The notes: generated by a model from the sequence alone, not told the origin. DNA of 63,807 bases, filler included, from Reclinomonas americana ATCC 50394 (GCA_048213135.1; 11 parts of 11 records of this genome joined end to end with filler, not necessarily neighbours in it); one strand, 5' to 3'; positions 14,701 to 52,818 are shown, counted from the whole stretch's first letter. Translations and numbers: made by a program.

Positions 14701-17700
14701 CGCGGTCGCGCAGATCGGCGGTGGAGAACACACTATGCACAATCACACACGCGCACTTTCAGGATCAAATCAAAGAAATCGCCCGGCGCAATACGCACCC
14801 GGCGAACTTGACGCCAGCCAACTCTGCCTGTCGCAACGGCATTTTCAGCATGGTGACACATCGGACCAGCTGCCTGTCGCTCGCCTGGTCCATCTTGAAG
14901 CCGATGTACAGCTGGATGAGATAGATGACTTGAATCACTGGTGCGCGCAGGGTGGTGAGTGGGTGAGCAGGCTCGTGGTGACAGCGGGTCGGTGAGTGCT
15001 TACCAATGACAATCGAAAATGTCGAGCTCCTCAGCAGCTGGCCCGTGAAGAGTGACAGCAGGTCGGCAGGACTGAGAATCACCACGTTAGCTCACTTGCG
15101 ACTCAACAACACCGCCGAGTACAGACGCAACGAGACAAAGGTAAAGTGAATGTCGAAGATATCGTGCACTGGAGAGAAAGGGAGAGAACACATTGAGGCG
15201 ATTCAACACAGAGAGAATCACCCCTCTGCCCCAAGTGACGACGCACGATTCACGCTAAAATCCGTCATGTGATTACAACGACACACAAACGACTGCACGT
15301 CGTGAGTTCCGCGCGCCACTCGCACAAATCTGTCGCGTGAGCGCATTCGTCAGGGCAGAGCGCAAACGATGCGCCGTACGGCGTCGTAACGTTTTGCATC
15401 CGTCCGATATCCACTGCTGCCTGGTCTCGTTCCAGAACACACACAGCTTGCCGAAGTCGGCAGCAGTCGCTGTAGAAACAAACAAAGAACAGAAAGCGCC
15501 GTGAACAACCCTCGCCTTGCGCCAATGGCATCGTGTGCACGCACGATTGTCACTGCGGTACACGGTCCGGTTGCAATCTGTGCAGACACGTAAGCACATG
15601 CGCCTATTCGTCAGCACGTAATTGCAATGCAAAGCGCAACGACTGTCGTCCAGGGCCACCAGCGTCGTGTCGCCATCGTCATCTGCTTCAGGTAAGTGCA
15701 AGCCACGCACTCCACATCCAGCAATGTACTCCAACACATCTCGCTTAGACAGGAGGTGAGGCACGACACATTCACAGGCAGGTGGGCATACAAAAGAGAC
15801 GTACCAGCTGCGGCGCAACGGCGGCCAGGAGCGCGCTATCTTGACGAGCAATCTCGAATGTGAACGATTCACCCGCAGTGGCATTCAGAGCGATGGGTAC
15901 TCCGTTTGCTGCTTGCAGAAACACTCGCTGGACAGGACCCAGGAACACGGTAGTGGAGTTGCGACTGTCCGCGTAGGGCAGCAGATCTGCGGCAGCCATG
16001 TAAAAAGCGATAAGAAAGCAAACCACGGCAGGCACGACATCAGGTGACCAACCATTGGCGATAAGCGTCGAGGTGATGATCGGGTAGACACCCTGCAGTC
16101 GCTCCGTAACGCTCAATGGGAACTGGTACTGCGTGACCAGGGAGGAGGCAACGGCATCCGTCGGGGGCACGGTGAAGGTGGAGCTGTTGGAGAACTGTGT
16201 GCGCAACATAAACAGTTCTTTTGTAAGGAGTTTCCGAGAGACATGAGCAGGCTGCCCGGGCAGCACAGACCTGGATGCCGGGCGCCGTCGCCAAGGGCGA
16301 AAGGTACGCAGACACCAGCTGTACGTTGGTGCCAATGATGGCAATTGCAGGATCGCCGGCGGTCTTGGTGTTGACAGCATGAAATCCGACAGTAGACAGC
16401 GCCGAGATACCATTACTCGCCATCTGTCCGTCCAGCACTGTGCCCCGCGTGGCTCCAAACACCGTATCCACCGTCGACACCAGCAGCTGCACAGTGAGCC
16501 AGGGATTGAGCACAAGTATCTGCTCACAACCTTCATAAAGACTTCCCCGACCATGCCCCCCTTTGTGCACTTCGAGTCCCCTCTTCATTCTCCGCTCTCT
16601 CCGCCGAGAGATTCGCCACCGAGATGCAACAAGAAACAAGTGAGAGGCTTATCTGCTCCTCTCATTCATCCTTCTCCTTATCCTCTCATTCTCTCCCCCG
16701 CCGCCAAAATGCAGCAATCGGTCATAGNNNNNNNNNNNNNNNNNNNNNNNNNNNNNNNNNNNNNNNNNNNNTTAATTAATTAANNNNNNNNNNNNNNNNN
16801 NNNNNNNNNNNNNNNNNNNNNNNNNNNATTCCTCTCACCTGCACCGAGGACACTGGAAGATAGCTGCCAATCGTGGCCATGTGCACAGCTGTTTGCATCA
16901 GGGAACTCGCGGTTGTTGCAACGGCGGCAGAGTCACCGCTCTTGGCCATATCACGCAGTGAGCTGACACGCGAATGCGCTAGTGAGTAAACGGGTGAAGG
17001 CACGCTGCAAAAGGTGGAGACGACAGCACCTGGCCAGATCTCCAGCCACAAACAACATGGTGGTGGTGGTCTCGGGAGAGAGTGACAAGTCGATTTTCGC
17101 AGCGGTCGCCGACAACAACATGGAGGCGTCACGAACGGCTGCTCGGTTGGAAGCAACTGCATCGTCGAAAGGGCCTTCACGTGTGAGAATCAAATGATGC
17201 CCCACATGTAATAGGATGTCTCACCGTCGAGCAGCGCAGACTGGTCACCCACAGTCAGTGCCGATACGCCGGCACTCAGCGAGCCCATGGCATCCGCCAC
17301 CTCACTGTCTGTAAAGTCGGTAAGGTCAAGCTGCTGCGCTCGGTCAAAGCTGCCGCGGAGAAATGCTCCATTGCTCGCGGTTGTGGACGGTGTGGTCGAC
17401 TCGAGAACCACAATCGTGGAGTAGACATCAACAGACGCGCCATATACATCGCGCACCGTGACGCCGGCGTGCAGCTGATTGCCGGTGGAGGCGCTTCCAG
17501 CCAGCGGGAAGATAACGCCCCTGATAACAGAAATCGTACTGGCCGTGATAAAGACCTGTGGACGAGAAAGGGGAAGGGAGGTCAGCGTGAAAAGAAGTGC
17601 GGCATTCTGGGGACACATCGGTTCTTTTCGAGACCAACCTTGGTGCCAAGCGACGGGTGCACGTAGAACGGAAGGTAGGACACTGGACGCGTGCGCACAC

Positions 17701-20700
17701 ACAAGCAGGTGAGAGACAGTTCCATTCGATGAGCACGAGAACAGCAGGCGACGCACGAGGTTGATCCTTGTCCACAAAGTCGGTCATTGTGAAAACAAAG
17801 GCAGTGATGCGAGCCACACCACTCAGTGGTGTGATATCGAGAGTGCCGGCAGTCGGCAAATCATTGATGTCGAGTGTAATGGAAGGAATAACTGGGGCGA
17901 GGCACGTCGTAAGGCACATCTATCACAGCACGGGTACAACCCTGCATGCAAGACACGGGCGTACCTGGAGTGCTCAGCGCGGGCAGTGCCAACAACTCAA
18001 ACACATACTTCTTGTTGCCCTCAAAGACGCCCTCTTTGATGCGCACAGCGGGCGGCTGTCCAGGAGCCGATGGAAGAAAATCGAAATCGGGCAAACCGAG
18101 CACTAGATCCTGCGTCGACCCTGCATTGCACACACAGATGCGAGTTCAGTAGCAAGACTTTGCACACGTCTCGCTGCATCGCAGACACCTTGCTCATACG
18201 CTCGCCACGAGAAGCTGGTGTCTGTGGGAGTGCCGAATGCAGTGGCGGTGATTGAAATAGAGCGCAGCGGGTTCAGCCGTGCAGTTGAAGCGCCGACAGC
18301 CAAGGGCGACGCCGAGACCTGTGCACGCAACACCATGATGAATAACAACGCCACCTCGTACCCAAGCAACAGAACGTCGACAAACCACTCTGAATGCGAC
18401 AGATTCTCCTCCTTGGACTGTCACATCTGCGGTAGCGTGCCGGTTGCGAGTTCCACGAGTCACTGTGCACCCGAACGAGTAGCTGCAGTGAAGAGACGTG
18501 AGAAGCCCATTTCCCTCCTTGCGAGGCACTCTGAGTGATACTGCCACGCAACATGCCCGGTGTGCTGAAGCCAGCAGCAATGGTCAGCACTGCAGATCGC
18601 TCCGGCGAAACGACGGATGCCCCACAGGGTGTGCCCCCAAACGAGCATGTCCACGTGAACACCACCGGCACGTCTCGTACCAGCGACCGAGTCCGGTCAA
18701 CATCCACCAGTGTGGCCTGCACAGTCACTGGTCCACCGACACCAACCACCGGCCCCATGGCGGTCAACGACAGCTCCAAGTCATGGAACTCTGTGCGATA
18801 TAGGCGGCGAAACATAACACAAAATGAGTGTGACACGATAACACGCGCGAGACGGCAGAACAGAGCACGCAACGAGTGACAATAGTTTCCGCTGCAGGCG
18901 TCAAGTCTCCCGAGTTCGCGTCCGTGACGACAAACACATAGAGATTGGAGTAGCCGGTGGCCGCCTCGAGGCCGGCGAGAGTGCACAGCACCGGAGTCGT
19001 CGAGGTCCTGTTGAACGTCAACCAGTGTGAGTGAAATGGATGACGAAGAGAGCGGGCAACACACACGGAAATTCACCACAAGCAGGGCGATGTCGTGGGA
19101 TGCCAGTCGATGAGACGCGTTCGCCCGCTTGATGCGCGCTTCTGAATGACTTGAAAACGTGGATTCGGACTGATCAGAGGCAGTCAGTGCGCCAGTAAGG
19201 AATATTGTCAGTGCAGTGACAGGAGGAGGCTCACCCTTCTGCCGCATTTGGTGGGCCGTTGGCTTGCACAAACCTGCACATTACGAGCAAAACTTTCACA
19301 AGGGAACGAGAAATTCGTAGAAACCCGGTTTCTCTGTCGCCCTCAGTGTCCCTCTCAACGCAACACTGGAGCCGTCGTATAAGTCGGGTTGCCGGCATTC
19401 CGCATCGCTGCCGTGTGCACGAGGAGAGTTTTCCCTGCACAGCCCGCATCAGCACGCTGCGATTCGAATAGAAGATGGAAGCACGCATGCACACGCACCC
19501 AAGACCACCTGCTGACGCCCAAAGTCGTTGTCATTGGCCAGCGACACACTCAGCGTGTAGTTCGTGTTCGGCTGCAGCCCGGTGGCCGTACACACCACGG
19601 TGTCGGTGTACGTCGTCGGCCACGGGCACGGATTCGGCACAGTCGACAGCCAGAGCACTCCGTTGACGAATACCTGCACTCGTTCGCCAGAGGTGCGCTC
19701 GTGCCATGTTGAAGATGATGACGATTGCACACTGCGTGCCAGTGTCGAGAATGTGCGCCGCATGACAAGCGTCACATTTTCTGGGTGTCGCAACAAGTCC
19801 ATAACGGTCAGCTGGTCTGGGATACTCGTTTCTGCAGTTTGGGGCGACGCATTCGCACAACCAGTGAGCGTAGTGACGCAAAGTGGGGAAACCACTTCTC
19901 TTCAGTGAGACTGACCAGTACCCAGCGAGTAGCTGCTTGCCCGGTGAAATGCTCCCTCGGACGGCGCAGCAGCGTAGTCGACACAGAGAGCGTACCAGGA
20001 TTTGAATCGATTCAAGCGGAATCCGCTCAGTACAACTTCGTGAGTTGTATCCACAGAGGTGGTACTCTGCTGTGCAGTCGCCAAATCGACTGTCAGCGTG
20101 CCATTGCGTGTCGGACCCAACAATGGCGCCACGCAGGACGTCGCCCATGGCATGCTGACATCGTCGACGGGTTCCAGTCGCAACGCCCGCAGTGAGGTCC
20201 GCGGCTCCAGTCCCAGACCGCGAAGAGTGAGTCGCGCGGCGGGATCATTTGCAGGAAGAACGAGTGGGTATATCGTCTCCACACGTGCTGTAATCAGGCA
20301 GAAGTGCACAAGTGAGACACTTGCCAGTTTCATAAAGAGGGGCTTGCATAACAGACCAACAAAAATGTACACAGCCTCCTTGACATTGAAAAAGGCGCCA
20401 TTTGGGTCGGCTGCGGCGGCGTCGAAACACAGCGAGTATAGGCCGGCTTGCAGTCCACTAGCCACGGTGATGAGCATGCGAGTGTCGCCATTCGTCGACT
20501 GCAGCGACACCGTGTCCGAGCTGTCAATGGTCAACGAGCCGCTGGCAACGCTGGCCGTCGGCAGGATCGTACACACCGTGGCCTCACGCTCAAAACGGAC
20601 GCGGCGCAGCAGCAACTGCGGCTGCAGAGCGACGCCGCTGACGGTAAAGATGGAGTTTGGCACATTCTCGAGAACCGTCACCGGTGTGAAGGAGACCACC

Positions 20701-23700
20701 GAGGCTGTGAATGCGACGCACAGTCAGCAGAGCACCTTCAAGAGGGACAGGATGAAGGAGAAAGGCTGGCCAGCGCAAGATGGGCATCGGCTGCATGCAA
20801 AGCAAGACACTGACACCTCCCGGTGTCCGACTCACAAGTCTCTGCAGCTGAGGACAGCTGTAGGTACCTCTTCGATCTCACGCATCACTCCTTTCTCCCC
20901 TTCCTCTCTCTCTCTCTCCTGTCGCCACTCACCGATGGCAGCACTGCCGTACTGCACAAAGAGCGGCTGCGAGTATGCCGACAGATCGACGCACACGGCA
21001 TACGTGTCGAGCGGCAGCGCGCCCGCTTGAATAACAACTTGCGAGCCTTCTGTGTCGTCCGCCACAGCGCCAAAGAGGAACGGCATCGACACTGTATCCG
21101 TCGCCGGGTTGTTGCCAGCAGCAGCACATGCGGTCGACGCCTCAAATCGCACACTCCGCACACTCACATTCGCACGCAATCCGTCACCCGAGATCGTGAA
21201 GCGCGCGGTGGCATCTCGCCGGAAGAACAACAGCGGAGCAACACCGACAATGTGCGGCACATAAAGCTCACGCACAATCGGAGGCACAGCCGGCAGTTGC
21301 ACAGGCCACTTTTGCAGAGCAGTGGTCGGTGAGTCGGAGACGAGCTCAACGCACACCGTCCACCGACCGGCAGGCACACCGGCGGCAAAGAGAATTTGGA
21401 GACTGGTGAAACTCGCATTGGCTGTCAGCGCAGAGGGTGAGATGGAAGTGACCGGCGATGGAAACGTGCACAAGGCTCCGCGTTGCAGGACCACACTTCG
21501 CAGAGCGCAAACGGGGTCCATGGTGAAGCCGGTGAGTGTGATGACAGAGGAGATTGCGTTTGGCAGCACAGCCACTGGTTGAATCATAGTGGCGATGGCT
21601 GTCACAATGTGCACGTGGGTAAGGAGCGCTTGACGAAGAAGATTCACAAGACGGCAACACAAACCGACAAAGAGGCGGCGCGAAGAGACTTGCGTCGGCG
21701 CACCGTCAGGTACCGCAGCTGTCCATTTCACACAGACGCAAAAGACGCCAGCGGGTATGCCGGTGTTGCCGTCCGTGTTCAGTGGCACGAGGGCGACACT
21801 GCCGTCGACCACCCCACTCGGATTCGTCACTCGCGCACCAAGTACCACCACAGACCCCGTGGGAAGTGGGTTCAACGCAGCACATGAAGGTGCAGGGGTA
21901 AAGATGACTTGATCGATGCTGCTGCTAGTCAGCCCCATCCCTGCACCACGACGCAATCTTGAGCAAACCCAGACAGAAGAGGGGCAGGGTTGCCCCACCC
22001 TCCCAGTCCCATTTCCTCCCTCCCTCCTACACACCGATAAGCGTCACCGGTATCAGGGATGCACTGGCGAGAAGAACTGGTGGCGAAAAGGAGTCGGCTC
22101 GTCCGACCGACACCAAGAGCACGGAGGGTCCAGGGGTGAGGGTGTTTGGTGGATCGGCAGCATATTCCACACAAATCTGTGAAGTGAACAGTAAGGCGAA
22201 CTGCTATTCCGAATTCAGAGTCATCGATGTGCACGCTTCTTCTTACCTTGTACACCGTCGGCGACAAGGCAGCCTGCGGGACAACCACCCGCAGCATGTC
22301 GTCGGTTGCGCTCGCAGCTTGTAGCGCGCTGGCACGCAGCGGAGTCTGGCCGCACGTGCCAACAGACATTGACGACGCCACAGGCGAAAAGAACACGCTG
22401 CGCACGGCCGCAGAAGGTCGAAGGCCCGAGCCGACCAACACGATCGATGAGCCAGACACAGAGGCCAGCACGCTTGGCAGCACCACCGAGACGACACCAG
22501 CTACACAACGTACAAAGAGTCACGACGAGGCTGGCGATTATCATCAACAAATCAAATCGTTGTCGCTCACCCAAATTCAACACGCCGCCGACCTTGACAA
22601 ATGTGGCCACAGGATTGCTGTTCAACAAGTCAACGCACACACTCCACTGCCCGAGCAACAGCGTCGGCATGTTGCCGATGGAGAACGTGAACGCCGGCAA
22701 GCCGTTCAGGGATGGCGCTTGCGTCATCTCCGCTACCACAAAGTTGCGCGAAAGCGATGTGCTTGCGGTCAGCGCACCAACTGAGCACTGCAGGCCACGC
22801 TCCAGGCGAACTGCGCGAATCATGTCCAATCCAAGGCCAATGCCCGCCAGCGTGAGAGGTGCCACGGTGCTGGCGGACGAGATAAAGTCGGGCGAGAACA
22901 TCGTGACACCTGCGTATCGGAATATAAGAATGAACCGAAAGATGCTGCTCCTCGCAACCCGCCACATACCGCGGCTGCAAATGCTGGTGAACTTGAACAG
23001 CGGAGGACACGTGCATGACCCGTCGCCAGCGACACCAGAGTTGCATATGCCGCCATTCTGGCATGGGCAAGCTGCGGAAGACAAACGCAGATGCGTTGGC
23101 TAGCAGCACGAGAAACAACACGGAATTGGACTCACGAGTGCAAATTGGGCCATACGCCGTTGACGAGCAGTCAGGCGTGGTGAACGACTGAATACTGCCT
23201 CGTTGCATCGACGATGCATCCAGGATGCGGTAGTAGTACGTAGTGAGTGGGAAGAGATTTTGAACGTTGGCTGTGACAACCATACTGCTGCTGGTGGATG
23301 GTGATGGAGAGGCGTCGACGGTGGCAACTGGTACTGAAAGGCTGCGAACTGTACTAAAATCAACGTCTGAAAAGTACAGCAGGAGCAGGGAATCCAGTAA
23401 GATCGTCGGTGAATACGGATTCGCAGCGTTACTTTAGATCTTTAGTTGCACGAAATAACGAACCAGAAACGGCCAGCAGGCGACTCCGTGGTTCAAACAC
23501 GGCACCAATCTACGTGAGTGTGAACAGTGAGCAGTGATACAAGAATACGGCGTTCAGAGGCTAGCAACGCACTGGAAAGCCAAATGTTGCAGTGAGTGGT
23601 GCCCCGTCATTACTGCCGTATTCTCCAGAACCGGCCACGATTGTGATCATGATTCCTGAACCATCAATTACACGAACGCGTTCGGTTTCGTACTGATTAC

Positions 23701-26700
23701 GGGGACATGTTACTGAGCAATTAATGTGCACGTGCATCACTGCTTGCGGCATACAACGGACATAGAACGCAACATCGACAACGTACAAATTTCCAGTGAT
23801 CGGATCAAGGGCAACAGCTGTCGGGGATATAAACAGGGCATTGGTCCCAGAGCCGTCCACGAAGCCAGCTGGAAGGTAGCCGATGAGGATAGCGACAAAC
23901 GTGGTCGTGTCAATCCGGAAGATTCCTGGGAATTCTTCGTCGCATACATACAGGAAACTACGCTGCTTGTCCAGTACAACTTGACGCACGGCTGCTGATG
24001 GCGTCACGGTGGACGTAATTGCTGGAGTTGTAATGGTTCCGCTATCGATGTTGACGCGTCTACAAGACTCGTGTGTCAGCCGAGGTGATTAGCGAAAACA
24101 ATTGCAGTCATGTGGACCGAACCGAAGCGGGCCTGAGTGCGATACATAGGCCACACGAGATGCGAAGTCTACCGCGATACCCTGCGGATTAGAAAACTGG
24201 CCGCTGGCCAGCGTGGAAACTTGTCCGCCAGCCAGCTTTCGCACAATGTGGTTGTTCTACAGCAAGAGTGCTTGAGCACACTGTGAATCAGTGCAATCCT
24301 GAGCTAAGTGAGCAAGTAACTGTGTCTACAATGTACACCTCCGTTCCAAGAGGATCCACCGCCACCGCATTCGGGCTGTGAGAGAAAACGGTAAGCATCT
24401 TTCTTTGCTCACCACTGCAATCGCCTGAAAGCAAGGATACTGACCCATTGAACAAGGCAGATGCCGCCGGTCCATTTTGTAGCCCTGAAGAGTTGTACAC
24501 TCCGGCGATTGTTGACACGACGGCTCCGGGACTGATCTTTCTGATTGTCTGGGCGCTAATGTGATATACGTAAGTGAGATAGTACAGTCTACAAGTGATG
24601 TACGCTGTGTTTTTTGGGCACTCACAATTTATCCGGGATGAAGACGTTGCCAACGTCATCGGCGGCGCCAGCCTGTCAGTCGAGTAACGACATAAGTCAA
24701 TCCCTGCTCAATAAAGGTGGAGAACAGGAGAACACAACGGCAGGCGAGTAAAATCTTGCCACTGGTCCCACGCCGTCGACGGAGCCGGAGAGACCAGGAG
24801 ACCCAGCAAGCGTGGCCACCACTGGCAGCGTACTGAACGGCGAAGTCGACAGCTCAAACCTCGGAGTCACGCCACTGGATTGCACCCTGCCAACAAGAGT
24901 GGCACTGGCGATAGTGATGTCCCCAACAGATAGCGTGCTCACAATCCCCGAGGCTATGATGTGAGAGAAGACTTGTTTTGAGATAGAAATACACAGACAG
25001 GACGGGGTGGCCATTGTGCGCAACTGACAGGCTGGAGTGGCGAGCGAGTTGAAAAGTCAACAATCAAGCCTTGTGCTGATACGGTGCTGGTGGCACGGAA
25101 GAAGTACGTCGCAGATGGAAACAACGACTCGGTAAGCGATGCGATACGAGTCGCAACAGAGCTGCTGGGCGGCATGGCACTCTGTCGCCAGGAGGGGAAG
25201 GCAAGAAGGCGGATAGTGTGATTGCTCGAATCTGCCAGAAGGGGGAGCGTGTGAGAATAAACGCTAGACCATGCAAAGCGTCGACACCAACGAGCAGCAC
25301 CTGCCACAAATAGGCCCCCTCGAATCCAGGCCACACCATTCTGTGAGCAGGGTACCCTGGTCAACACTTCTGCGGGACAGCCCCCGGCAAGACATTGGTC
25401 ATGCATACCGGCAAGTTGAGTCGGGAATTGCTCAGGTAGCCATCGGCAGTGCCTGGTACAGTAGCCAAGCCAGCCAAGGTGTTGACTTGCGCTTTAATGG
25501 GGTCGATCTGTCGAATGGCGGAATTGTTTGTCTGATACAGCACACTATTGAGTCTATCGGCTCTATTGCAGTGCACGGCTCAAGCAGGGACGCAACATCT
25601 GCAACGTAAACCAGACCATCAAGGCTGACGGTGACACCTGCCGGACTTTTGAATCGCGCCACACTGGTCGCCACTCCATCCGCAGAACCGGCGCTACCAG
25701 GGGACCCAGCCAACGTGGAAACAGATTCGGTGGCCAGATCAATTTTCCGAATGGTGTGGTTGCCAGTGTCCGCCACATACAGCACCGTGTCGGCACTCGC
25801 CAGCGCCACTGCGCTTGGCGTATTGAACCGTACACCGGAGCCAGTGCCATTTGTGCTACCAGTATAACCGGACACGCCAGCAACAACTTGCGTAGCTCCG
25901 GCTAGTGTCACAGACCTGAGAAGTGCAGCATGGTGACGACATAGTTCCACGGCGAGAGGGTGCACGAGTCCATGTGAACAGATACGTACAGAATAGTGTG
26001 GTGGCCACTGTCGGCCACGTACACCAGCTGGCTCGCCGTGATGGCCAATCCGCGAGGTGCAGACAAATTTAGATTCGTGGTCATGGTATCCACTGTCGTG
26101 CCACTGACGCGCCGCACATTGGTGTTACCGTCCTGGAGACGTGCCATGTGAGACGATGATGATACGCATAGTGACGGAGCAAGGCATCAAACCTCCACGA
26201 CAAAAATGTCGCCGGTGACTTGGTGCACGGCAACGCCTGTGGGACTGTTTGTGTCGCACACATCAGGTCACAAGAGTGGGGAAACTAGAAATGCACCCGA
26301 CGAAGAAGCTCGGGATACCTCGAGAACATGGCTGACGACACGGATCCATCCTCGGCTCCGGGCTGACCAGTACCGGCAATCGTCGACACCAGGCCACTCA
26401 CGCTCATTCGCCGAATCTTGTGGTTGCTGCACGACGAATGAGCGGAGGCAGCGAACCGGCGACAAGCGGAATCGATGCGACGCAACTTTCGATCCGCAAC
26501 GACCATCGAGCCAGTCGACGCATCCGCTGTAGTGCCCTGCAAATCTCTGGTGATCAGCAAGCGGAAGCCACATGACGGCTGCCCCGATCGCTTCATGCTC
26601 ACCCATGGAGTGGAGAACGCAGCGCTAGCTCCCTGTCCATCTGCGGCTCCGGAGACGCTCGGTGCGCCAGCCACCGTCGACAGTAGCGTAACACCGGATG

Positions 26701-29700
26701 CAAATGTGGACGACGACAGGGAGACATCGAAAGCGCCTGTCATCTGGACACCGGTGCCGTTCGGGTCGATGACACCATTGAGGATCGCTGTTGTGGTGGT
26801 GACGACAGTGGCCACATTGGTGGTGACCAAGGGGGCTATACAACCGGCGTGATGAGGAGGCGGAACATACCATTGAACTCACAGACGCACTCACCGGGCA
26901 CCGGAATGAATGCTTGAGAGGTGAATTGCACGGTAGACCCGACGCGATTGCTGACCGTGTCGACGGCTCGGTACACATATGTTGTCAGCGGCAGAAGAGA
27001 GGAGACTGTCGCAGAAAAGCTCGTTGGTGTGCTTGCAGTGAGAGGACTTGCTGTAATCGTCAATGGCGGCAACACAGCCAGTCGCAGGGAGCCATTGGCA
27101 GAGTCTGGCACGGCAGTCGTACATCAGACAGCAGTCAATACGGAGGACAGCAAGAAATGACTCACCCGTGATCACCAGGCCGTGTGCAAATGCAGCCAAC
27201 CCGCGCTGTGCCTTGGCGTGAGCTGCTGGTGTGCGCCAAACACTGACGATTTTCTGACACTCACCACAGTGTTCAGCCGCGATCCGTTGCCTGCTCCGTC
27301 AACAAAACCCGCCGTGTCGACGACGCCGAGAAGCGTGGACACTCTACTCACAGACAGCTGGACCACTCGCACAGCATTTCCCTGCACCGCCACAAATGCA
27401 ACACATTAGCAATCACTCCGATCTCGACATACCCACAACCAGGCACGCAGCGCAACGTCAGCAACATACAGCGTGTTTCCATCTGTACCGGTAGCAATGT
27501 GCGCCGGCAACTGGAACAGTGCGGAGGTAAGTGTCCCGTCGAGAGCCCCGGACACGCCAACGATGCCGGCGACAAGTGAGACGGTGGCGGTGCTCAAGGC
27601 AATCTTGCGAATGACCCGATTGCTGAGATCAGCCACGTAGAGAGTGTTGCCATCTGGGGCCAGCGACACCGCCGAAGGAGAATTGAAACGCGCACTCGCG
27701 CCGACTCCATTCGCGGAGCCACTAACGCCGGAAGCCCCAGCGACAATCGTCACTGGCCCAGCAAATGCGAGGCGACTGCGAAGCAAAGCGGCTGTGAGAA
27801 GCGAAAATCACAAGGCTGTCATCTGGCTGCAACACGTCCAACCGAATAGTGTGGTCGAGAGCATCCGCCACGTACACACACTCGTGTGCGAAAGACCCGT
27901 CAACGGCGATGCCCTGTGGCAACCTGAAGTCGCTACTAACGGTGGATACTTGGCCATCCGCAATCTTGCGCAGCGAATGGCTACCCTCCTGCGACCACGG
28001 ACAATGGATGAGAACATCACATCACCTCTGGGCTAACCTGGTGCAGCAGCGCACAGACTCACTTCAGCGACATACACCTCGCGATTCTGACTGTCAAATC
28101 CAACCCCCGTTGGGCTGTAAATAGTGATGAGAAGGCAATCATCGACGTGTGTGCGCATGAAGCCAGTCATCATCCACGCACCGTGAGAAACGTGCTGTTT
28201 CCGCCGGACCATCGACGCTGCCAACAGCCCCAGTACCCGCCAGCAAAGTGAGCGTACCGGAGAGCGTCACTGCCCGCACCACGTGAGCTCTGTTGCGCGT
28301 GACAAGGAATCAGTGGATGACTGTGAGGATGCGCGGATAAGCGTGACGCACTGATAGTCGGTTACGAAGAACGTTGCGCTGCTTGCATCCAATGCCACGC
28401 CCTAATTTCTCATCGAAATATGGAAAGGGATGTTAAAACGCACACTATCAGGTAACAAGCATCCTCACTGCGTGAGCCCGACGCACCCATGGACTTGGGA
28501 ATGCCCCGGTGCTGGAGGCAATCAAGGTGGACAGGACAGGCACTGTGCTGCCAAAGGCGGCGGACAAGAGAGCAAAATGGAAAGCATTGCTGGTGCCGCC
28601 CGTGTCAACTGTCGCATTCAGCACAGCGCTGGTGGAGGTGATTGACGACGCGGCCAGCGTGCTCACAACAGGTGCTGCGAGACAAGGACATGAGTATCAA
28701 CTTTTTAACGGCGTACAAATTGCCAGACATGCTCACGAACACGCTCACAAACCCGGCTTTGTGGTCAGCTGGCTTGACTGGGGACGAGCCGACAAATCGG
28801 AGAGACTGACAAGCCGATACACGTAGGTCGTCGACGGCAACAACTGCTGCACGGTCACAAAAGCCGAATAGCTGGTGACACCACTGCTACTGGAAGGGCT
28901 GATAGCGGTCACGTCGGGTGGGATGGTGACAAGCCGTATGCGTGAAGATCCACCGTCTGTTTTACAACGAACACGATGAGTTCAACACCTTTCACCATGA
29001 ACGAGGAGATCATCAACACAAAAACGCACCAGAAACGAACAGAGTGCCATGCACGGCTGACATTATGCCTGGTGCACTGAATCTGGCATTAACGCCGTAA
29101 CCGTCGACGACAGCGCTGGCTGTGGATGCTGTCCCTGCAACAACTAGTAACTGACTGCCGGAGAGATATCGGATGCAATTGTTGCCCGTCTGCAAGTCGC
29201 AACCTTCAGTATGGGGGTAGCAAGAGAGAGACAGAGACCATATGAGACGCAACATCAGCCACGAAGATAGTCAGTGCATCTGGGTAAACAGCGACGCCGG
29301 AAGGGTTGTTCAAGAGTGTGCCAGAGGCGCCAGACATGCCTGGCAGTCCAGCAACGAGAGAGACGACGAATGTGCTCAGGTCCACCGCGCGGATCACGTG
29401 GTTGCCACTATCGGCCACCAACAGCCGCTTTGCCGTTGAATCCAGCGCGATGCCCGTTGGTTGGTTAAATGAGGCCGCGGTGGCAACACCATTTGCGTAT
29501 CCGCTGCTCCCTCGAGTACCAGCCAGCACGCTTACGAGCCCACTGGCGGAGATGCGACTGTGACACAAAGACGATGAGACGGGTGGTACAGCAAGCGTGG
29601 CGCCCCACAGGGCGGAAAACGCACAAGATAACGTGCAGCGCAGCATCGGCTACATAGAACTCGCCACCGGCAAACTCGGCGACTGCCACTCCTCGAGGAG

Positions 29701-32700
29701 CCTGAAAGTCAGTCGTCACTGTGGAAACTTGACTCGCCGACAGACGACGAAGGCTGTGGTTGCCATCCTACAAATATCACAACATCAATGACTACATGCG
29801 CACAGGCGCCAAGAACATGGCTTCGAACTGGCACACCTCGGTAACAAGAATGTCGCCATTGCGTCTATCGACAACTACACCAAACGGTCTGCGATATGCA
29901 TGGTCATATATGCAGATTGTCAATCTCATCACGTTCTGCGGCATACGCACCGTGAGAAACTGGCCGCAGCATATGGACCGTCTGACGAGCCCGGGACACC
30001 AAGAGTGCCGGCCAGTGTGCTCACGCTGCCATCCGTACCCACTGATCGGATCACATGGTTGCTGCACAAAGGAAAGAAAGGTGAGTCCGACTCGCCAATG
30101 GACCAATGCAAAACACGCGCAGGTGGTACGAGCGTACTTTGTATCGCACACGACAATGCGACCGGAGGTCCAGTCTACAGCCACTCCCTTTTGTAATTGC
30201 CGATTACAATGCAAGTAAGGTCGCGAGTCTAACCACAATAGACAACGTTGAACAACTGACCATGGGCGACGACAACGACAAGCTACTGTCCACTGCCGAC
30301 GGCCCGGCTAGTGTGGACACTGTAGCCGCACCACTGCCGAAAAGATCGGCTGACGTGGCCAGCTCGAACTTGAATAAAATGGTCAAATTGCCGGCGAGCG
30401 TGGCAGCGCCTGGCAACGTAGCCGAATTCGCACCTACACTGGTGGCGGAATTGGTGGACAGCGAAGTCACTGAGATGAGCACACGTGCACGAGGTGAGCA
30501 GCCAGCAGGGTTCCAAAGTCATGAATGTTTGTTTTGCCCCACCGAGATTCGTGATAGCAGAGGCCGTAGGCGACCGAAAATGCGAGTTCAGGTCCACCAC
30601 GCGATATGCGTATGACAAGCCCGAAACCAGCGCGACGCCGCTAGCCATCAGAGTGATCGACGCGGATCCAGTCGCAGTGGCAGGCGAAGTGACAAATGAG
30701 GTCGGCGGCAGCGTGATGATTCGGATGGCACTGTCGCCAGTGGTTGTATCGTTCGTCGTCAGTGTCACAGTAGAGCCCTCGACGACTACGCCGTGCTGCA
30801 GAATGGGGAAAATGGCGCAAAATGAGACTTCGTTGACTTTCTGGAAAATGCACGACAGGTCGTACCGGTGTTGGGAATGACGCGGAGGTAAGTAGTCCAT
30901 CATTGGAGGTGGACCAAGCTGGTGAACCTGCAAGTGTACTCACGGTGCCGGATGCCGCAATCACCCGCACCGTGTGGTTGCCGGCCTCGTGCGACGGAAA
31001 ACGACGTAAATCTTTCGCTTGTTGGCAACTATCTCCAGCACACCAAACAATTCACCTCCACAACAAATAGAGAGCCAGAGAGATGCTCGAATGCCACTCC
31101 TATCGGATCGCGGAAGAAGGCACCACCCGGAGCACCATCTGTATATCCGGGCAACGACGACTGACCGGCCACTGTTGTGACTGCCATGGTGGCCAGCACG
31201 ATCTTGCGCACGACGTGATTGCCGGTGTCGGCGACGTAGAGCACTTTCTGATTCGAGTCCAGGGCGAGGCCGATCGGTGAGCGAAATGAGGCGCCGGTGC
31301 TTACGGCGTCTGTGTTGCCCGGAACACCGACCGAACCGGCGATGGTGGCCACCAGTCCTCGGAAAGACACACGACTGACAAAAACAAACAACAGGAGCAG
31401 CAGCGATCAGCGTGTGTTAATTCACGCCAAGAGAGACCTGCATGCGCGAACGCCAGCAGCTCACCGCACGGTATGCAACGAGTCAGTGACAAACAGGCAT
31501 TCACGATCGGCGAGCGAATCCACAGCAATGCCTCGTGGCTGCGTGAATCGCGCGTCGTTGCGAATGCCGTCAACGTGACCGGCTGTGCCGACAATAGAGC
31601 CCGCCAGGGTCGAAAGCACACCAGCGGATAGCTTGCGAATGGCATTGTTGCCACTCTGTGCCCAGGGTTGAGAGGCGCGCATGCGTGGCATGCAGACGAG
31701 ACAACTGCTACATACATCAACAATAAAAACGTCTCCAGTTCCCCGGTCGATCCCAACAGAAGTCGGACTGGGTGGGAGACTCAAAGTCAGCCGTGTCACT
31801 AAAACGTTGCTTCGCATGCACTGAGTGAATCACAGACCTGGATAAGAGAGCACTGGTCGGCGCGCCTTCGACAAAGCCGGCAATGCCAATCTGACCGACG
31901 AGAATCGTCTGGACTCCGACGGCCGACACGGAACGAACAACGTGATCTCTGAGAGGCGAACATAGAGGCCAGTGAGATGAAAGCAAAACAATGCACACAC
32001 GAAAAAACTTATGCACTTATGCGTGAAAAGTGCGTGCAAATCAACTCGCAAATCACCTCGCATCAGCCATAAGGACGTAACCGCTGCCGTCCACAGTCAA
32101 GCCCTGCACCGAGTACCGAGAGGTTGACTGACACACATAATCTCAACACCAGTCGAGATGAAGCTACCACCAACCATAAAGCCGACTACTGCAGCGGGAT
32201 CCGACGAAGTTGGCAGAGCTCGCGTGACAGTCTTCAAGGTCGATACCAGCGGAGCATCGCCAAATGCATCTAGCGACCTTGCCACCTGCACGGTGCCCTG
32301 AACAGAGGACCCGTTTTGAGGGGTTACGCGCGCAGTGAAGGCAGCGGCCGTTAGCGCGCGAGTCAGCGAGTTTGACGACAGCGAGACCGTGGGTGTGGTC
32401 CAGGTGGGTGCTGACGGAGCAAGTTGCAGTGAGAGAGTGAGTTCAAGCGAATACTACTTTTCACAGCACAAAAAATACCTGCGGTGGTGGTGATGGAAAC
32501 CACGGTGCCGGAGAGTACGGGTGTGGATGCTGCCGCACGCACAAAGTATGTCGTCGCCGGCATCAACTGCGAAACCGTCGCGGAAAATGTCACCAGCTGC
32601 GAATCGCCTGCTGCTGTGGACGGAGAGGCAGCGACCATGGTTGCCGGCAGCGCGACTTGCCGAAGTATCACATTTCCCGTGTCTGACGCAGCAGTTAGTC

Positions 32701-35700
32701 AGTCTCTCTGACGATCAAACGAGGCATGACAGAGACGGGCAAACGCGCCAGCGACAAGCAGCCGTCCACGCTTCAAGTCAAAAGCAAGCCCACGCTGGCA
32801 AGAGTTGGAGTACATGATGAGTGACTGAATGAGGGAAGGTAGCGGAAGAACAGCATCGCGCACACACCGGAGACGACAGCCGTGAATCGCTGGCGGATCC
32901 GTCTGCCAACCCACTTGTACCAGGTAAGCCGGCGACTACATCAAGTGATCCATCCACCAACGACAGGCGTCGAACAACATGATTTGGCGTCTGATACCGA
33001 ACACAGTGAGTAATACCGTCGTTGCGATGAGATTGGAAGCCTCACTCCTCGCAGGTCGCAACATCCGCAATGAACAGCATCTGGCCAGCAACATCGAGAG
33101 CAACCGTCGCCACGGCGGACAGCACAGCTGTGGTCGACGGCAGTGTCGACACTGTCAGCGTCGCAAGGTCGACAAGGCGGATGGTGTGATTGCCCGCATC
33201 GGCGACATAAAGAAGGCCGCGATCGGGATCAACAGCCACATCTGCGGGCGAGCTGAACCTGGCCGAGCGTGCGACAGCATCGATGAAGCCCTGCTGACCC
33301 GGGGAGCCAACAAGCGTGGCGGTGATGCCTCCATACGAGACTCGCCTGTACGCGCACACAAGAATGGGCAAGAGAGATAGGGGAAAGTGAGAGAGAGAGG
33401 GAGAGGGAGACACACAGAGAGAAAGAGGTAGAGGGAAAGGGAGGAGAGACGCAGACAGAACGGAGGGAGGAGAGACACAGAGAGAAAGGAGGGAGGGAGA
33501 GAGAGAGAGGTGGAGAGAGAGACACACACATACAGACAGGCAGACAAGTGCACGCACATGCACGCACACACATACACATACACGCTATCTCTCTCTTCAA
33601 CGCAAGCAAGTTGCAATCGTGTTGCAACATAAAGTACTCACCGAATAGTGTGATTCAGCGTGTCGGCCACGTAAACACACTCGTGATTCGTATTGGGATC
33701 CACGGCAAGACCCTGCGGTCCACCAAACTGCGCGGCAACAGTGGTCCCGCGTGGTCGGTCAGCAGTACCTTGGCTGCCGTTACCGGCCAGCGTGGACACA
33801 GTGGTGCCGACGATCGAGCGAATGGCATGGTTGGATTCCTGAGCACGTGCGCAGTGAGAGGAGGTTGTGCAGCGGGGCAGCGCAATCGCACGCAACTTCG
33901 GAGACGTAGATGACTTGCGTGTACGGGTCAACGAATACATCAGTAAGGCTGAGGAAAGAGGGTCAACAAATACCGTTGACGTGAATGAGCACGGAAAAAG
34001 GAAACTCACTGCGAAAAGCGCGCACTGCTGGTGCCGTTGGCAAAGCCCGGCGTTCCGACAGCGCCAGTCAAGACACTCACGGTGCCAGTGGCAGTCACTT
34101 TGCGAATGACATGCGTGCTACATTCCGATAAGAGGAAGGGTAAGTTGCGACGGAAACTCGGCCGACCCGAAAGAATCATACGCACTCATACTCTGCGACA
34201 AACACGTTGCCGGTGGCGTCCACCGCAACACCCTGCATGCAAACAACGCGGCCGAGCGTGAGCAATCTCACATCAACACGAGGCGGTGCCTGTGTCCCAC
34301 AAAAGCACACACCCGCGGGGAGGAGAACGTGCCCTGCAGGGTGGAGACCGCAATCGCTCCGTCGATGGCACTGGACACACCGGAGATTTGGAAACTGAGA
34401 CCGCTCACCGCGGTGCCGGCACTCGAGAGGACAGAGCCCTGCAGCGTGATGGTGGTGCTCGTCGTCGCAGAGGGAGCGAGGGTGGTGATGGTGATGCCGG
34501 AAGGATCACCTACAACACACTGTGAGAAATCCAGCAAAGAATCTCTCCCTGTCTTTGCCAACGAAACTTTGCGTGTGCACGACTGGTCGGCGACTCGAGC
34601 ATGGCACCGACAGCAGCACCACCTTCTCGACGGAGAGCGGCAGACCCGACAACATCGTCATCATCGGCCAAGCGCGCTTCGCATGCACATTGCCACTGGC
34701 ATCTTGATCGTGATGGCCGGTGTCGCTGCCGTCATCCATCTCCGTCGCACGAACACGCACGTGCTGCAAACACGACATGTCGTACTCGTCCACTCCCACT
34801 GCTGCTGAGGCGGCGGGTGGCGGCGGGGGCGTCGGCGTCCACCACAACTCGCAACCATTGGCGATGCGTAGGGAGGCAGTCGGCACCTCGGCGACAAGTG
34901 AAAACGAGTGTCGTTGGTGGCGATTGATGTCGACAGTGCGGAGTGTGCCAAGGAGGACACCCGCGAGTCCGTGTGAGGAGGGAGGAGGAGGGAGGAGAGG
35001 GGGTGAAGTTGTTGTCGGGAGGAAGTCAATATCCGATGGCGCGACATTGGCTGTGGCGGTGCATGCGGTGAGAAGAGGATGAGGAGAGAGAGGTGGAGTG
35101 AGAGAGATAGAGGGAGAGAGAGAGATCTAGATCTAGAGAGACAATGCGTAATTGCAAACCTTCGGCGATCAAGAACGAGGCCTGGATGCGAGTGCGCTCC
35201 ATCCGAGGACCGGCCAGTGGCACCGCAGACTCACGGACGTCGTTGCTGTTATTGTTGTCGACTGGCAGCATTCTCACGGCACAGCTCACAGCGACCATCA
35301 ACGGAGACCCCAGCACTCCACTCTCGCCCATGACGAGCTCATGGCCGTGAACGCCCGTGCGCACGGCGAAAAGGTGCGAATCCCTGCCGCCGCCCTCGTT
35401 GTCATCCACGGTGGCACAGTCGTCGATGACCAACGCGAGCAAAACAGACCCCACATGATCTGCGTCCGCTCGAAGCTCTCCAATCACTTCACCGCGTGTT
35501 GATGGTGGTGTGTATGCAGGCGATGTGGGTATTAGCAGGAGGCGGGCTGTGCGAGAGCGAGCATCAGAACAACATTGCACAGCACAATTGATTTATGCAT
35601 GACGGTGGTGTCGAGGGTGCGACGCGGCACCGTCAAACAGTATGCGCGAGGATGGTGCGCATGCAGCAGATGCAGGAGGCTCGAGAAACGGAGAGGAAGA

Positions 35701-35865: not shown

Positions 35866-36289
35866 GAGGCCTGTGTGTGTGTGTGTGCTCCAACGCGCGG
35901 TGAAGCGATTGTCCTTTGACTGCAATTCGTATCGCTGCGAACACGCAGCCCGAGTGTGCTTTGTTTTTGTCTGTTGCTGATGGAGGCACTGGCTTGTTGG
36001 TGGACGACGATGTCCTTGTTGCGATGGTTTCGTCGCACTCTCTGTGCCCTGCGAACTGCGCTTTCTGTTGTTGGTTCCTTTCGAATTCCTGGTCGAAATC
36101 ACCCGCGATATGGAGAGAGAAATAGAGAGAGGGAGAGGGAGAGGGAGGGGAAGTGGGAGGGAGGGAGGGAGAGGGAGTACGCCAGGCGAAGAATGCACAT
36201 GATAACTTTGGTGTGCCCCTGTGTCGTGTGTCTCCACCAAAGCTGTGACATCAATCTCATTCTCTCTCGCTCTCTCTCTCTCTCCCTCT

Positions 36290-36370
36290 CTCCCGTCTCT
36301 CCCGACAGCCTGCACGTGATAAGTGGCAGTGATGATTGCACGTTGCGTGTGTGTGGCTCGCCAGTGGGGA
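36290..36370 (+). pseudogene. Isolated degenerate WD40 repeat of the same family
   Basis: VSPDSLHVISGSDDCTLRV followed by frameshifted 'tggctcgccagtggg' (WLASG). Confidence 0.6.
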
Positions 36371-36454: not shown

Positions 36455-36696
36455 TGATGTGTGGGGTGGCTGGCTGCATCTCAGCGAGGGATGGAGGACG
36501 TCTCAGAGAGAGGCGGGAGCGGGAAACGATGACGATCCAGAGCGAGCAATTCACACGCACACACGATACAAAGAGAACAGACTCTTCGTGACCACCACAG
36601 GAGAGTACCGACCAGGTGTTGCTCTCCGAAGAGAGAAAGTCAACAGAAGCGAGCCTATCAAGAGAGAGGGTAGGGCACAAGAGTCCTCTTTCTCCA
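36455..36696 (+). promoter_or_regulatory. Conserved proximal upstream segment of WD40 family genes (putative promoter/5'UTR)
   Basis: Matches 3910-4149 ('gcgagggatgga..gagcgagcaa..ctccgaagagagaa(g)aagtcaacagaagcga.cctatcaagagag') and partly 925-1030. Confidence 0.6.
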
Positions 36697-50401: not shown

Positions 50402-50501
50402 NNNNNNNNNNNNNNNNNNNNNNNNNNNNNNNNNNNNNNNNNNNNTTAATTAATTAANNNNNNNNNNNNNNNNNNNNNNNNNNNNNNNNNNNNNNNNNNN
50501 N

Positions 50502-52818
50502 CTCTTTCTTCTCTTGCCTTGGGCTGGGAGCTGACCTTGTGTGTTCAGCAACTTGCGCATCATTCGCCACATGACGCGCGAGGAGGCCGTGGAGATTCTC
50601 ACGCGTGTGGGAGCGGATAGTGGGCGTGCGCATCCGACGTTGGTGCCTGGATGCCGCGTGGAGTGCATCCGCGAAGTGGGCCCCATTCACGTCGGCGGTG
50701 TGTGCTTGTGTTGCTTTGCATGTTGTTGTCCGCAGTCGCTTACCCCCTCACGCAGACCAAGGCACGCTGTGGGATCATGACGACTCGCCGCCGACTTGGT
50801 GCGTGCTCATATCACGGCTCTCGTGTCTTATGTCATATGTTGACTTTATTTGTGCGTGCGTGCGTGCGCAGCTACGTCACGTGGGATCGACAGGATTTGC
50901 AGACCGAGGCCACGCAGCCGATTCGCGCGCAACTGGCGGGCGCTCGCGCCGCCAGCGGCTACTGGTGCAACGACGCGTGAGTAGTCGTAGTAGCAGTCGC
51001 GAGATAGATGCGCATGTTCGTTCCGCGCGGCGACTCATGTTCTGTTTTATTGCCGTAGGGATTTGCGTGTGGTTTCACCGCCGGGTGAGGGTGCCAGTGC
51101 CGCCGGTCCCGGTCGTTTCTTGGCGAGCGGCTCGTCGGCGGCCGCTCCTCGAGTACCGGTGCGGTCGGTCGGTGCCCCCAGCGGCCAGACCTACCAGCAA
51201 CTCAGCGACTACGCCGAGCACTTGCGCAACAGCACCGGCAGTCGTGTGCGAGTGGTCGTTGCGTACGGCAATGTCCAAGTCGGCGGTATGTGGTCGGCGC
51301 ACATTGTTGTTTGTCTGCTGTGCACTTGTTATTGATTGTGGTTGGCAGATATCGGCAAGCTGCAGTTTGTCGACTACTTGCCGCCGGAGGACATGATTAC
51401 GGAGGCTTACCCGCCACCATGGTTTGTGGTACTTGGCAAGCAAGGTCTATTTTCTGCGAGCTCACAATATTCCCTGAATTACAGCTACGTCACATTCGAC
51501 CGCGAGCTCAATTCAACTGCCGAGGTTCCGCCAGCGCACGACTTGTACGACGTGAATCCGCCGCGTTCACGCGGAGCGTGGGTTCCTGTGGAGTTGCGTC
51601 GCGGAATTGTTCGATATTTTTTGATGCCGTGTTTTGATGCTCACATATAAGTGCAGGTGCCTGCAAGTGGAGAACTCGAGCCGCGCCCCACCGAACTCAC
51701 CGCCGCCGCCCTCCTCATCGCGTGCGCGACCATCGCTCCCCGCCGGCGTGCAAGTGATGACCGACCGAAGCGTCCCGTGTCTCGTGTGCACCGATGCTGG
51801 CGGCTCCGTCTACCGTCTGCAGTGCACGCACGGAATACACGGCGAGTGCATTCGTGATTCCATTGGCCCTCTGGTGACTGCGGATTCGCGTCATCCACTC
51901 AAGTGCCAGCAGCGCGGATGCACCCAGGGTGAGTGGCTGCAAATGTGATTGACTTCGAATCTCCCGCCTGCCATCTCACTCACTCACTGTGTGTGTGCGC
52001 ACAGTGGTCCCGCTGGAGGTGGTGCACCATGCCGCCGTCGAGTGTGGCTTCGAGCCGGCCGCCGGACAGTACTTTGACCTGCTCAATCGCCAGTTCGTCC
52101 TGAGTGGCAAGTCCAAGACGTGCCCGCGGGTGTGTTCCACTGCTCCCCCTTGTCCATAATTTCACGGCGCACTGCTCACGTTCTTTTCGTGCTTACAGTG
52201 CCGTGCGTCCATCATGCCCGAGGATCCGAACCTGCGTCAGGTCACCTGCGCTCTCTGCAGCACTCGGTGAGCATGAACTGCCACCACCTTTTACTCTTGC
52301 CGTCGGTGACCTGACTCACGCGCTCTGCATCACAGTTTCTGCATGCGCTGCCAGGGCCAGTGGCGCGATCCTGCCAACCAACAGTGGTGCGGCAACGACC
52401 AGTGTGACTCGGTCGGTCCCAACTCTCTGCTGCGCACGTGCGCCATGAAAGAGGTCGCGTACACGACTGGCCAATGTCCGAGCATGCGTGCGTGCCCCTC
52501 GTGTCACTACGTGCAAGGTGTGTGGCACGACAGAGGACAGGTTTTTTGGATTGTGCGCCCCCCAAGTGACTCACTCCTGTCGCTGCAGAACACTCTACGG
52601 CCTGCAAGCACATGGCGTGTCAGCAGTGCGGCGTCAATTACTGCTTCCGCTGTCTACGCCCGCAGCGCAACGGCGCATGGCAGTTTCGTTGATAAGAACC
52701 CTTGCTGTTCATCTTCCGTCCACTCCTTTTTTGCTGATCTTCTTCCTCTCGCGCCAACAGGTGTGGCTCCTTCCAAGATTCGTGCCCTGTCGCACCTCGG
52801 CAAACCGTTCCTGAATAA
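50502..52818 (+). CDS. RBR E3 ubiquitin ligase with catalytic Cys retained and an uncharacterised N-terminal region (5' truncated)
   Basis: CLVC..CTHGIHGEC..CQQRGC; CPR|CRAS..CALC..FCMRC; spliced CPSCHYVQEHSTACKHMACQQCGVNYCFRC..APRQTVPE*. Confidence 0.85.

Follow-up and report, generated by a model that had tools for sequence, protein, structure and literature searches.

Is a single donor signal in use in the introns of Reclinomonas americana, or does a second one stand beside it? The question is raised by a stretch of the genome of strain ATCC 50394 (GCA_048213135.1; 63,807 nucleotides (nt), analysed over its whole length and referred to below as the window), in which a first-pass annotation had described a recurrent 5' splice site, GTTGCG(T), as a one-base-shifted version of the usual GTGCG donor. 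The GTTGCGT donor class is very probably real, to judge from the gene models of the window. It appears to account for approximately a quarter of the introns traced, and to be the usual choice where the exon ends in a base other than G. The complete reading, in which genuine major-type introns carry a second donor signal, N/GTTGCGT (the slash marks the cut, and N is never G), that would be recognised in a displaced register by an altered U1 partner, is one on which we remain evenly divided.

Frequency of the GTTGCG donors among traced introns

Fifty-two introns were traced in nine genes, placed by Pfam matches on long open frames or, for the two RBR genes, by eye (Table 1), and every intron that a gene model needed was taken, whatever its donor. 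Left out of the count were the first RBR2 intron near 50697, which has three possible donors, a site at 23364 with no fitting acceptor, the segment 15072-15221, a ceramidase intron with its donor off the contig, and most of the remaining receptor introns. All 52 introns start with GT and end with AG, including the 16 of the class, which comprises 14 introns with GTTGCG and those with GTTACG (15330-15390) and GTTTCG (52683-52760). The proposed boundaries of the ten GTTGCG introns listed in the first-pass annotation (10/10), and of the two with related donors, all carry these terminal dinucleotides. GTTGCG is the commonest donor hexamer (14/52), followed by GTGCGT and GTGAGT with five each, and 24 different hexamers occur in all. 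Recurrence of the class, formerly reported for five unrelated genes, is borne out, with the number of genes rising to seven of the nine, and three further GTTGCG donors appear to be present at 43531, 51593 and 38673.

It is quite unlikely that no special recognition is involved and that GTTGCG is frequent within a loose consensus through base composition, codon context or shared repeat descent. The donors are loose, as the 24 hexamers among 52 introns attest, six of the 14 GTTGCG donors occupy one homologous site of a repeat protein, and GTTGCG hexamers are only mildly raised in the window (75 vs 59.4 +/- 8.0). However, where independent positions predict 0.85 GTTGCG donors, 14 are seen, distributed with the remainder of the class over seven of nine genes; the earlier suggestion that GTTNCG donors be compared with chance expectation is thus answered in favour of the class. 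Of 3785 GT sites on sense strands, 43 read GTTGCG, as compared to 14/52 traced donors (binomial p = 7e-16). In the 48,381 bases for which the strand is known, the heptamer GTTGCGT is found in sense orientation 18 times and in antisense orientation once (p = 8e-5), with 11 of the 18 sense copies being traced donors, and its 24 copies in the window compare with 13.6 +/- 3.3 in shuffles, 24 being reached in 1/100 shuffles. Counting from the first intron base as +1, T at +7 is a mark of donors only, being found in 11/14 GTTGCG donors as opposed to 7/29 other sense-strand GTTGCG sites (p = 0.001). The association with the last exon base and the unrelated intron bodies, both described below, speak against chance as well.

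In a forward-backward gene model blind to the donor, only two donor hexamers ranked above GTTGCG, for which 4.3 donors were expected over the window as a whole; the expectation was 4.2 on sense strands as compared to 0.8 on antisense strands. This model made clear errors and was used as support only. An intron called at 55810-55864 (posterior 0.98) is false, as it lies inside the catalytic Cys box of USP, and 26427-26486, likewise called an intron, is exon. Codon-usage Viterbi gene models were too weak or too permissive (the true frame is worth approximately 0.13 nat per codon), while a filter on reading frame lets through 61 % of all GT sites.

Support for individual junctions

Among the class junctions, ten appear to be fixed by homology, paralogs or internal repeats and five by reading frame, while 27382-27456 is doubtful. 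The four GTTGCG junctions without homology or repeat support are 18791-18873, 46559-46621, 51593-51656 and the doubtful 27382-27456. The class junctions might be mis-modelled, the true donors being nearby GT or GC dinucleotides, since an in-frame GC is available three bases downstream at every GTTGCG site. This is very improbable, given the alignments in which the competing junctions can be compared. In the UBE2H gene, the exons flanking the donor at 48192 align to residues 41-75 (before) and 77-99 (after) of PDB entry 8pjn_2, and the sole missing residue is the split codon C/AT (His), which no other GT can supply. The exons flanking the ceramidase intron align to residues 594-624 and 631-679 of 4wgk_A, and are gap-free with the split codon counted. 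Use of the downstream GC would add a residue, breaking both the single-residue gap of UBE2H and the zero-gap alignment of the ceramidase.

The paralogous RBR genes provide a further comparison, as the RBR1 intron 43070-43134 has a counterpart with a canonical donor in RBR2. When RBR1 is aligned to RBR2, the claimed junction scores 280, while the GT three bases upstream and the GC three bases downstream each score 271. For the second RBR1 intron, 43531-43596, the spliced form scores 280 and the retained form 270; being in frame, it could be retained, a point on the side of mis-modelling. The exon that follows the last RBR2 intron (52683-52760) aligns to the RBR1 C-terminus with a score of 280 if the intron is assumed and 277 if it is not, and 51593-51656 is the only GT...YAG pair joining the two open frames on either side (donor-blind posterior 0.60). 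Splicing of 38595-38673 restores the Cys spacing of the tandem repeats of the Stig1-like gene itself, upstream of a Pfam Stig1 match (donor-blind posterior 0.81), and this spacing is again broken by the downstream GC. A Pfam GPS match (E 2e-4, just under the cut-off) ends at the 15330-15390 junction of the receptor, with the frame running on into the rest of the motif. In neurochondrin, the acceptor of 46559-46621 could lie 9 nt downstream, with the donor unchanged in those models, and a Pfam search with the short neurochondrin exons gave no match.

Eleven receptor introns lie at one homologous NHL site, in phase 0, right after the Asp or Glu residue that closes the first half of the blade. 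Six of these have GTTGCG donors, and the others GTATGT, GTGAAT, GTGTGC, GTGAGT and GTTTGA. Every in-frame GT-AG or GC-AG alternative was scored against ten uninterrupted blades from this receptor, combined in a matrix, and the claimed junction came first among 5 to 18 in-frame alternatives in five of the six GTTGCG introns, with the downstream GC ranking below it in each of the five. The GTTGCG donors proposed earlier for the listed genes are mostly supported, two of them (18791-18873 and 46559-46621) by reading frame only, the exception being 27382-27456 (rank 19/29). Here a GC 3 nt downstream and a GTATGT 24 nt downstream are in-frame alternatives, and the junction scores better with the former or with other choices; together with the unreliability of the donor-blind model, exemplified by the false USP intron, this speaks for mis-modelling.

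Additional NHL introns lie off the common site by one or two codons, or in another phase (24257-24320, 30062-30137, 28290-28351 and 34118-34191, all on the minus strand). Their placement suggests that introns slid, or were gained separately, inside the array of repeats.

Features of the class compared to ordinary introns

By every feature that the sequence allows to be compared, the class would belong to the major (U2-type) GT-AG introns. Median length is 65.5 nt in the class and 69.5 nt in the others, a branch-like YTNAY motif occurs 8-48 nt before the 3' end in 14/16 class and 35/36 other introns (median distance 22 vs 20 nt), CAG ends are found in 16/16 and 28/36, respectively, and the pyrimidine share of the intron body is 0.60 and 0.61. 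None of the 24 donor hexamers begins like the long conserved donor box of U12-type introns.

The two groups differ in the last exon base and in the donor itself. None of the 16 class donors is preceded by G, as had been claimed for those traced earlier, while 26/36 others are (Fisher p = 1e-6). As the Asp codon at the NHL site forbids a final G, the comparison was repeated without the introns at that site, and the difference persisted (0/10 vs 23/31; p = 4e-5), which also argues against a chance origin. The split of donors by this base, proposed in the first-pass annotation, hence shows the class after non-G exon ends only: it makes up 16/26 introns in that position and 0/26 after an exon-final G, with the remainder after non-G being mostly strong ordinary donors (GTGAGT in four). 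Class donors are tight, with invariant C at +5, G at +6, G at +4 in 14/16 and T at +7 in 12/16. Ordinary donors are loose at +3 (G 21, A 9 and T 6) and +4 (A 12, C 11 and T 12; n = 36), with T at +6 in 23/36, and the near-universal +5 G ascribed to them earlier is present in 31/36.

A sharp 7-nt start shared by many short introns of similar length could also be expected of a mobile introner-like element carrying its own conserved 5' end. This is the least probable of the explanations considered, and extremely so, as the bodies of GTTGCG introns are no more alike (identity 0.510 over all GTTGCG pairs; 0.526 among the six at the NHL site) than those of all curated pairs (0.508 +/- 0.052), and the intron start shows no excess pairing with the remainder of its own intron (z = -0.81 vs -0.63 in other introns). 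Paralogous intron positions bear either donor type. The unrelated bodies imply that the conserved 5' start is maintained and not inherited by recent copying.

Pairing with U1 and mode of recognition

GTTGCG, GTTACG and GTTTCG mirror the ordinary donors GTGCGT, GTACGT and GTTCGT with one extra base, so that a one-base displacement is the natural reading, and N/GTTGCGT equals an ordinary G/GTGCGT in which the second G is replaced by T and the cut is made one base upstream. To this extent the description of the class as a one-base-shifted GTGCG holds, but standard U1 is predicted to pair stably with it in no register. With the standard 11-nt U1 5' end as printed in PMC4856993, and bulges permitted in the duplex search, the mean energy is -0.17 kcal/mol for the class, whereas it is -6.35 kcal/mol for the 36 others, of which 32 pair in the canonical register. 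Class donors form at most four pairs in any register, with energies from -2.1 to +0.7 kcal/mol. No preference for a shifted register emerged among the 16 class sites, as no stable duplex forms in any register, and a bulged duplex with standard U1 was chosen for none of the 16. In contrast, the hexamer ACGUAC, of the type reported for another organism, Mastigamoeba, would pair with 16/16 class donors displaced by one (mean -3.55 kcal/mol), while the standard U1 hexamer gives +0.83 kcal/mol. On these predictions a variant small nuclear RNA (snRNA) would fit the class better than standard U1 in a shifted register. An Rfam search of the window returned no RNA gene of any kind at the gathering threshold, and no snRNA at E <= 1.

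Donor usage points in the same direction. Traced donors are found at 0/8 sense GTTGAG and 0/24 sense GTTGTG sites, and GTTAAG is absent altogether, while the ordinary GTGAG[T/C/G], GTGTG[T/C] and GTGCGT donors number 9, 4 and 5. As these shifted forms are unused even though GTGAG and GTGTG are common, the class cannot be described just as ordinary donors that standard U1 reads one base along, and since standard U1 offers no partner for the invariant +5 C, a partner of another kind would be needed.

The alternative that standard U1 alone is used, with a shifted or bulged register stabilised by U1 proteins, or with the site defined later by U6, U5, Prp8 or a dedicated RNA-binding protein, is unlikely, while deserving serious weight. 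According to bioRxiv 10.1101/2022.06.08.495308, atypical donors go together with a standard U1 pairing segment in several lineages, namely Saccharomycotina, Giardia, Mamiellales and Thecamonas. PMC4856993 states that pairing in a shifted register or with a one-base bulge has been proven for human cells, and PMC11732430 describes, for many eukaryotes, one donor class that relies on U5 loop 1 and another that relies on the U6 ACAGA box. The latter pattern matches the split by the last exon base seen here. Against standard U1 stand the few pairs and weak energies in every register, the disuse of GTTGAG and GTTAAG, which it should prefer when shifted, and the absence from it of a partner for the invariant +5 C and for the +4 G of 14/16 class donors.

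Under the explanation that we favour, recognition of the GTTGCGT site would be displaced by one nucleotide from the normal register, a proposition that we consider slightly more probable than its opposite. The first intron G would then sit in the place of the last G of the exon, and TGCGT in the place of positions +2 to +6 of GTGCGT; with the first intron G in that slot, a G at -1 is not needed. The pairing partner would carry a G opposite the +5 C, and could be an ACGUAC-type segment in U1 or in a second variant of it. This identification of the partner as an altered U1 segment, derived from pairing arithmetic, is tentative and falls somewhat short of probable. As A, C and T are equally common at +4 of ordinary donors, and GTGAGT is the preferred form after a non-G exon end, a U1 of standard type must exist as well. 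It is conceivable, though doubtful, that the major spliceosome holds two donor specificities, with standard U1 serving G/GTNNGT and a U1 variant or other small RNA serving N/GTTGCGT. The corollary, that the choice between them depends on whether a G is permitted at the exon end, and that the second class comprises a fifth to a quarter of introns, is similarly speculative.

A number of observations weigh against this explanation. With +4 A, C and T in 12, 11 and 12 of 36 ordinary donors, and GTGAGT the commonest ordinary donor without -1 G (4/10), a G-bearing U1 cannot be the sole U1, and two U1 types are required. The exon bases that would face U1 in the displaced register look unpaired, with A at -1 in only 4/16. 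Lineages with C at +4 (Mamiellales and Thecamonas) keep a standard U1, according to bioRxiv 10.1101/2022.06.08.495308. The pairing energies leave out pseudouridine, the cap and U1 proteins, and the U1 segments used come from other organisms. The junction at 27382-27456 fails the motif test, five class sites are placed by reading frame only, and every junction was read from DNA sequence alone. The 52 introns fall short of a complete count, with most receptor introns unmodelled and tracing begun from the genes of the first-pass annotation; in the genes without a GTTGCG donor listed there (RBR2, WD40, USP and Stig1-like) GTTGCG is found in 2/14 introns (p = 0.011), a test in which RBR2 is not fully independent, as its GTTTCG donor had been listed.

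Gene content of the window and further sites

The window is eukaryotic, with a G+C content of approximately 0.56, and consists of 11 contigs in order, between which lie ten identical 100-base linkers, in each of which two runs of 44 N enclose a 12-base stop in all six frames. The UBE2H gene runs across one of these, so that at least that contig pair is truly adjacent. Searches for homologous proteins with single-exon queries from the receptor, RBR1 and neurochondrin gave no hit, and a protein-atlas query with the ceramidase exon gave no usable hit. RBR1 and RBR2 have three intron positions in common, and a possible third RBR gene is marked by an exon at 53220-53453 on the minus strand, with a Pfam IBR match (E 7e-4). 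Two well-supported introns end in GAG (NHL intron 30986-31055, minus strand) and AAG (USP intron 56232-56300, plus strand) rather than in CAG or TAG.

Table 1 Coordinates of class introns, candidate sites, genes and linkers in the window
Feature	Position	Strand	Donor	Length (nt)	Phase	Last exon base	Remarks
UBE2H intron	47714-48192	-	GTTGCGT (at 48192)		1	C	spans assembly linker
Neutral ceramidase C-terminal intron	40226-40288	-	GTTGCGT	63	1	T	
RBR1 intron	43070-43134	+	GTTGCGT	65	1	C	
RBR1 second intron	43531-43596	+	GTTGCGT	66	0		new; in frame, stop-free
RBR2 intron	51593-51656	+	GTTGCGT	64	2	A	new
RBR2 canonical intron	51929-52004	+	GTGAGT			G	counterpart of RBR1 43070-43134, same codon and phase
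RBR2 last intron	52683-52760	+	GTTTCGT	78	2	A	
Stig1-like Cys-rich gene intron	38595-38673	-	GTTGCGC	79	0	A	new
Neurochondrin intron 2	46559-46621	-	GTTGCGT	63	1		reading frame only
Receptor intron, GPS region	15330-15390	-	GTTACGA	61	2		donor-blind posterior 0.90
Receptor intron	18791-18873	-	GTTGCGT	83	1		frame only; donor-blind posterior 0.99
NHL intron	23693-23773	-	GTTGCGT	81			rank 1/10, small margin (2.6 vs 1.2)
NHL intron	25532-25596	-	GTTGCGT	65			rank 1/18
NHL intron, doubtful	27382-27456	-	GTTGCGC (claimed)				rank 19/29
NHL intron	29190-29253	-	GTTGCGT	64			rank 1/16
NHL intron	32991-33062	-	GTTGCGA	72	0		after Asp codon; rank 1/5
NHL intron	33839-33896	-	GTTGCGT	58	0		after Glu codon; rank 1/6
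Candidate receptor intron	18483-18552	-	GTTGCGT	70		T	frame only (open codons: 242 upstream, 95 downstream); uncounted
Candidate intron, possible third RBR gene	53159-53219	-	GTTGCGT	61		T	uncounted
Candidate intron	63351-63409	+	GTTGCGT	59	0	A	frame only; uncounted
Giant receptor with NHL, REJ and GPS parts	~14 to 35.6 kb	-					Pfam; class introns 8/19
RBR1 (RBR E3 paralog)	42.5-43.9 kb (42517-43896)	+					found by eye, weak Pfam IBR hits; class introns 2/4
RBR2 (RBR E3 paralog)	50.5-52.8 kb (50540-52817)	+					found by eye, weak Pfam IBR hits; class introns 2/8
UBE2H-like E2 enzyme							Pfam; class introns 1/5
Neutral ceramidase C-terminus							Pfam; class introns 1/1
Neurochondrin							Pfam; class introns 1/9
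Stig1-like Cys-rich gene							Pfam; class introns 1/2
WD40 genes							Pfam; class introns 0/2
USP							Pfam; class introns 0/2
Ankyrin							Pfam
Linkers	6262-6361, 13884-13983, 16728-16827, 37732-37831, 40859-40958, 42306-42405, 47879-47978, 50402-50501, 57863-57962, 60062-60161						100 bases each

Three candidate GTTGCGT introns were kept out of the count (Table 1). Read-through of that at 53159-53219 meets a stop after nine codons, and a natural gene end is also possible there, while Pfam and PDB searches with the exons flanking 63351-63409 (63234-63565) returned nothing. The GTTGCG sites at 26486, 26500, 34229, 40223, 15640, 51258, 49478 and 36342 were judged exonic, and those at 15131, 19364, 18331, 60912 and 43911 were left without a verdict and uncounted. 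The last of these, at 43911-43917 on the plus strand, is a GTTGCGT that follows a G and lies 14 bases past the stop codon of RBR1, where the 3' untranslated region is presumed to be. The acceptors at 25024 (minus strand) and 42515 (plus strand) are directly followed by TTGCG, so that the last intron G and the exon together spell GTTGCG, possibly by chance.

The plus strand of a 1.4-kb tract at 8587-9951 consists almost wholly of pyrimidines (C 0.45, T 0.36); the tract is open in all three plus frames and noncoding. CT, CTC and TG microsatellites are plentiful in introns and at contig ends (47714-48192 and 40386-40856, minus strand; 42406-42514, plus strand), and assembly gaps fall inside them. 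Sub-threshold matches to Rfam microRNA families occur on both strands at 36103-36310 and 6140-6261; the first resembles an inverted repeat located upstream of a WD40 gene and the second a TG/CA repeat, and neither looks like a credible microRNA gene.

Implications and comparison with known donor systems

The reality of the GTTGCGT class is well supported, and pairing arithmetic, the only source of the proposed mechanism, suggests how it may be read. Gene finders and scores for splice sites that expect a +5 G or a -1 G would miss or misplace approximately one intron in four in R. americana, and such misplacement shifts frames in conserved genes, including the UBE2H-like E2 enzyme. A simple rule would describe the choice of donor, with an exon-final G followed by a loose donor, and any other base by a GTGAGT-like donor or GTTGCGT. 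A genome with a noncanonical form as a main donor type would constitute a natural system for studying how the choice of cleavage site becomes independent of pairing with U1, and would also probe whether a single cell can hold diverging U1 pairing segments. A full-text literature search for a GTTGCG(T) donor class, with the R. americana genome paper outside its reach, found only primers and unrelated sequences.

Human 5' splice sites that U1 reads shifted by one nucleotide were reportedly described by Roca and Krainer in 2009. These sites resemble the present class in that the cut is made at GT with the pairing block one base deeper, U stands at +3, and the ordinary consensus follows from +3 onward. 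They differ in being rare and in pairing well with standard U1 once shifted, whereas the R. americana class has the block GCGU instead of AAGU, accounts for 16/52 traced introns, and has no predicted binding to standard U1. Bulged registers present a second parallel, as GT, an extra U and GCGT amount to an ordinary GTGCGT with one bulged U, but the -1 G that is helpful to a bulged register is absent from 16/16 class donors. PMC4856993 gives 68 and 51 predicted human sites for the +2/+3 and +3 bulge registers among 201,541, and approximately 1.5 % of sites for the validated noncanonical registers together.

The general division of donors into two classes is also recognisable here, in that one half of the traced introns is exon-anchored (-1 G with loose intron positions; n = 26) and the other intron-anchored (no -1 G; n = 26). 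However, the known intron-anchored class keeps its +5 G, while +5 is C and +6 is G in 16/26 of those in the window. Strict GTGCG(T/C) donors are said to have been reported by Irimia and Roy in 2008 for Ostreococcus and other Mamiellales. These share the GCG core, but are read in the normal register and, in the part of bioRxiv 10.1101/2022.06.08.495308 that is available, accompany a standard U1; neither the extra T nor the exclusion of -1 G figures among the donor features reported in that part.

Altered U1 segments provide the remaining comparison. The same portion of bioRxiv 10.1101/2022.06.08.495308 lists a U1 with ACAAAC alongside GUUUGU donors in Entamoeba and one with ACGUAC alongside GUGCGC in Mastigamoeba, and Physarum is said there to have both a standard and an altered U1. 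As in the class described here, the atypical donors of Entamoeba and Mastigamoeba contain a C that standard U1 cannot pair, and ACGUAC would pair with 16/16 class donors. In those organisms, nonetheless, the consensus as a whole is transformed and the register is the normal one, while in the R. americana window two donor types stand side by side, and a displacement by one base would apply to the atypical type.

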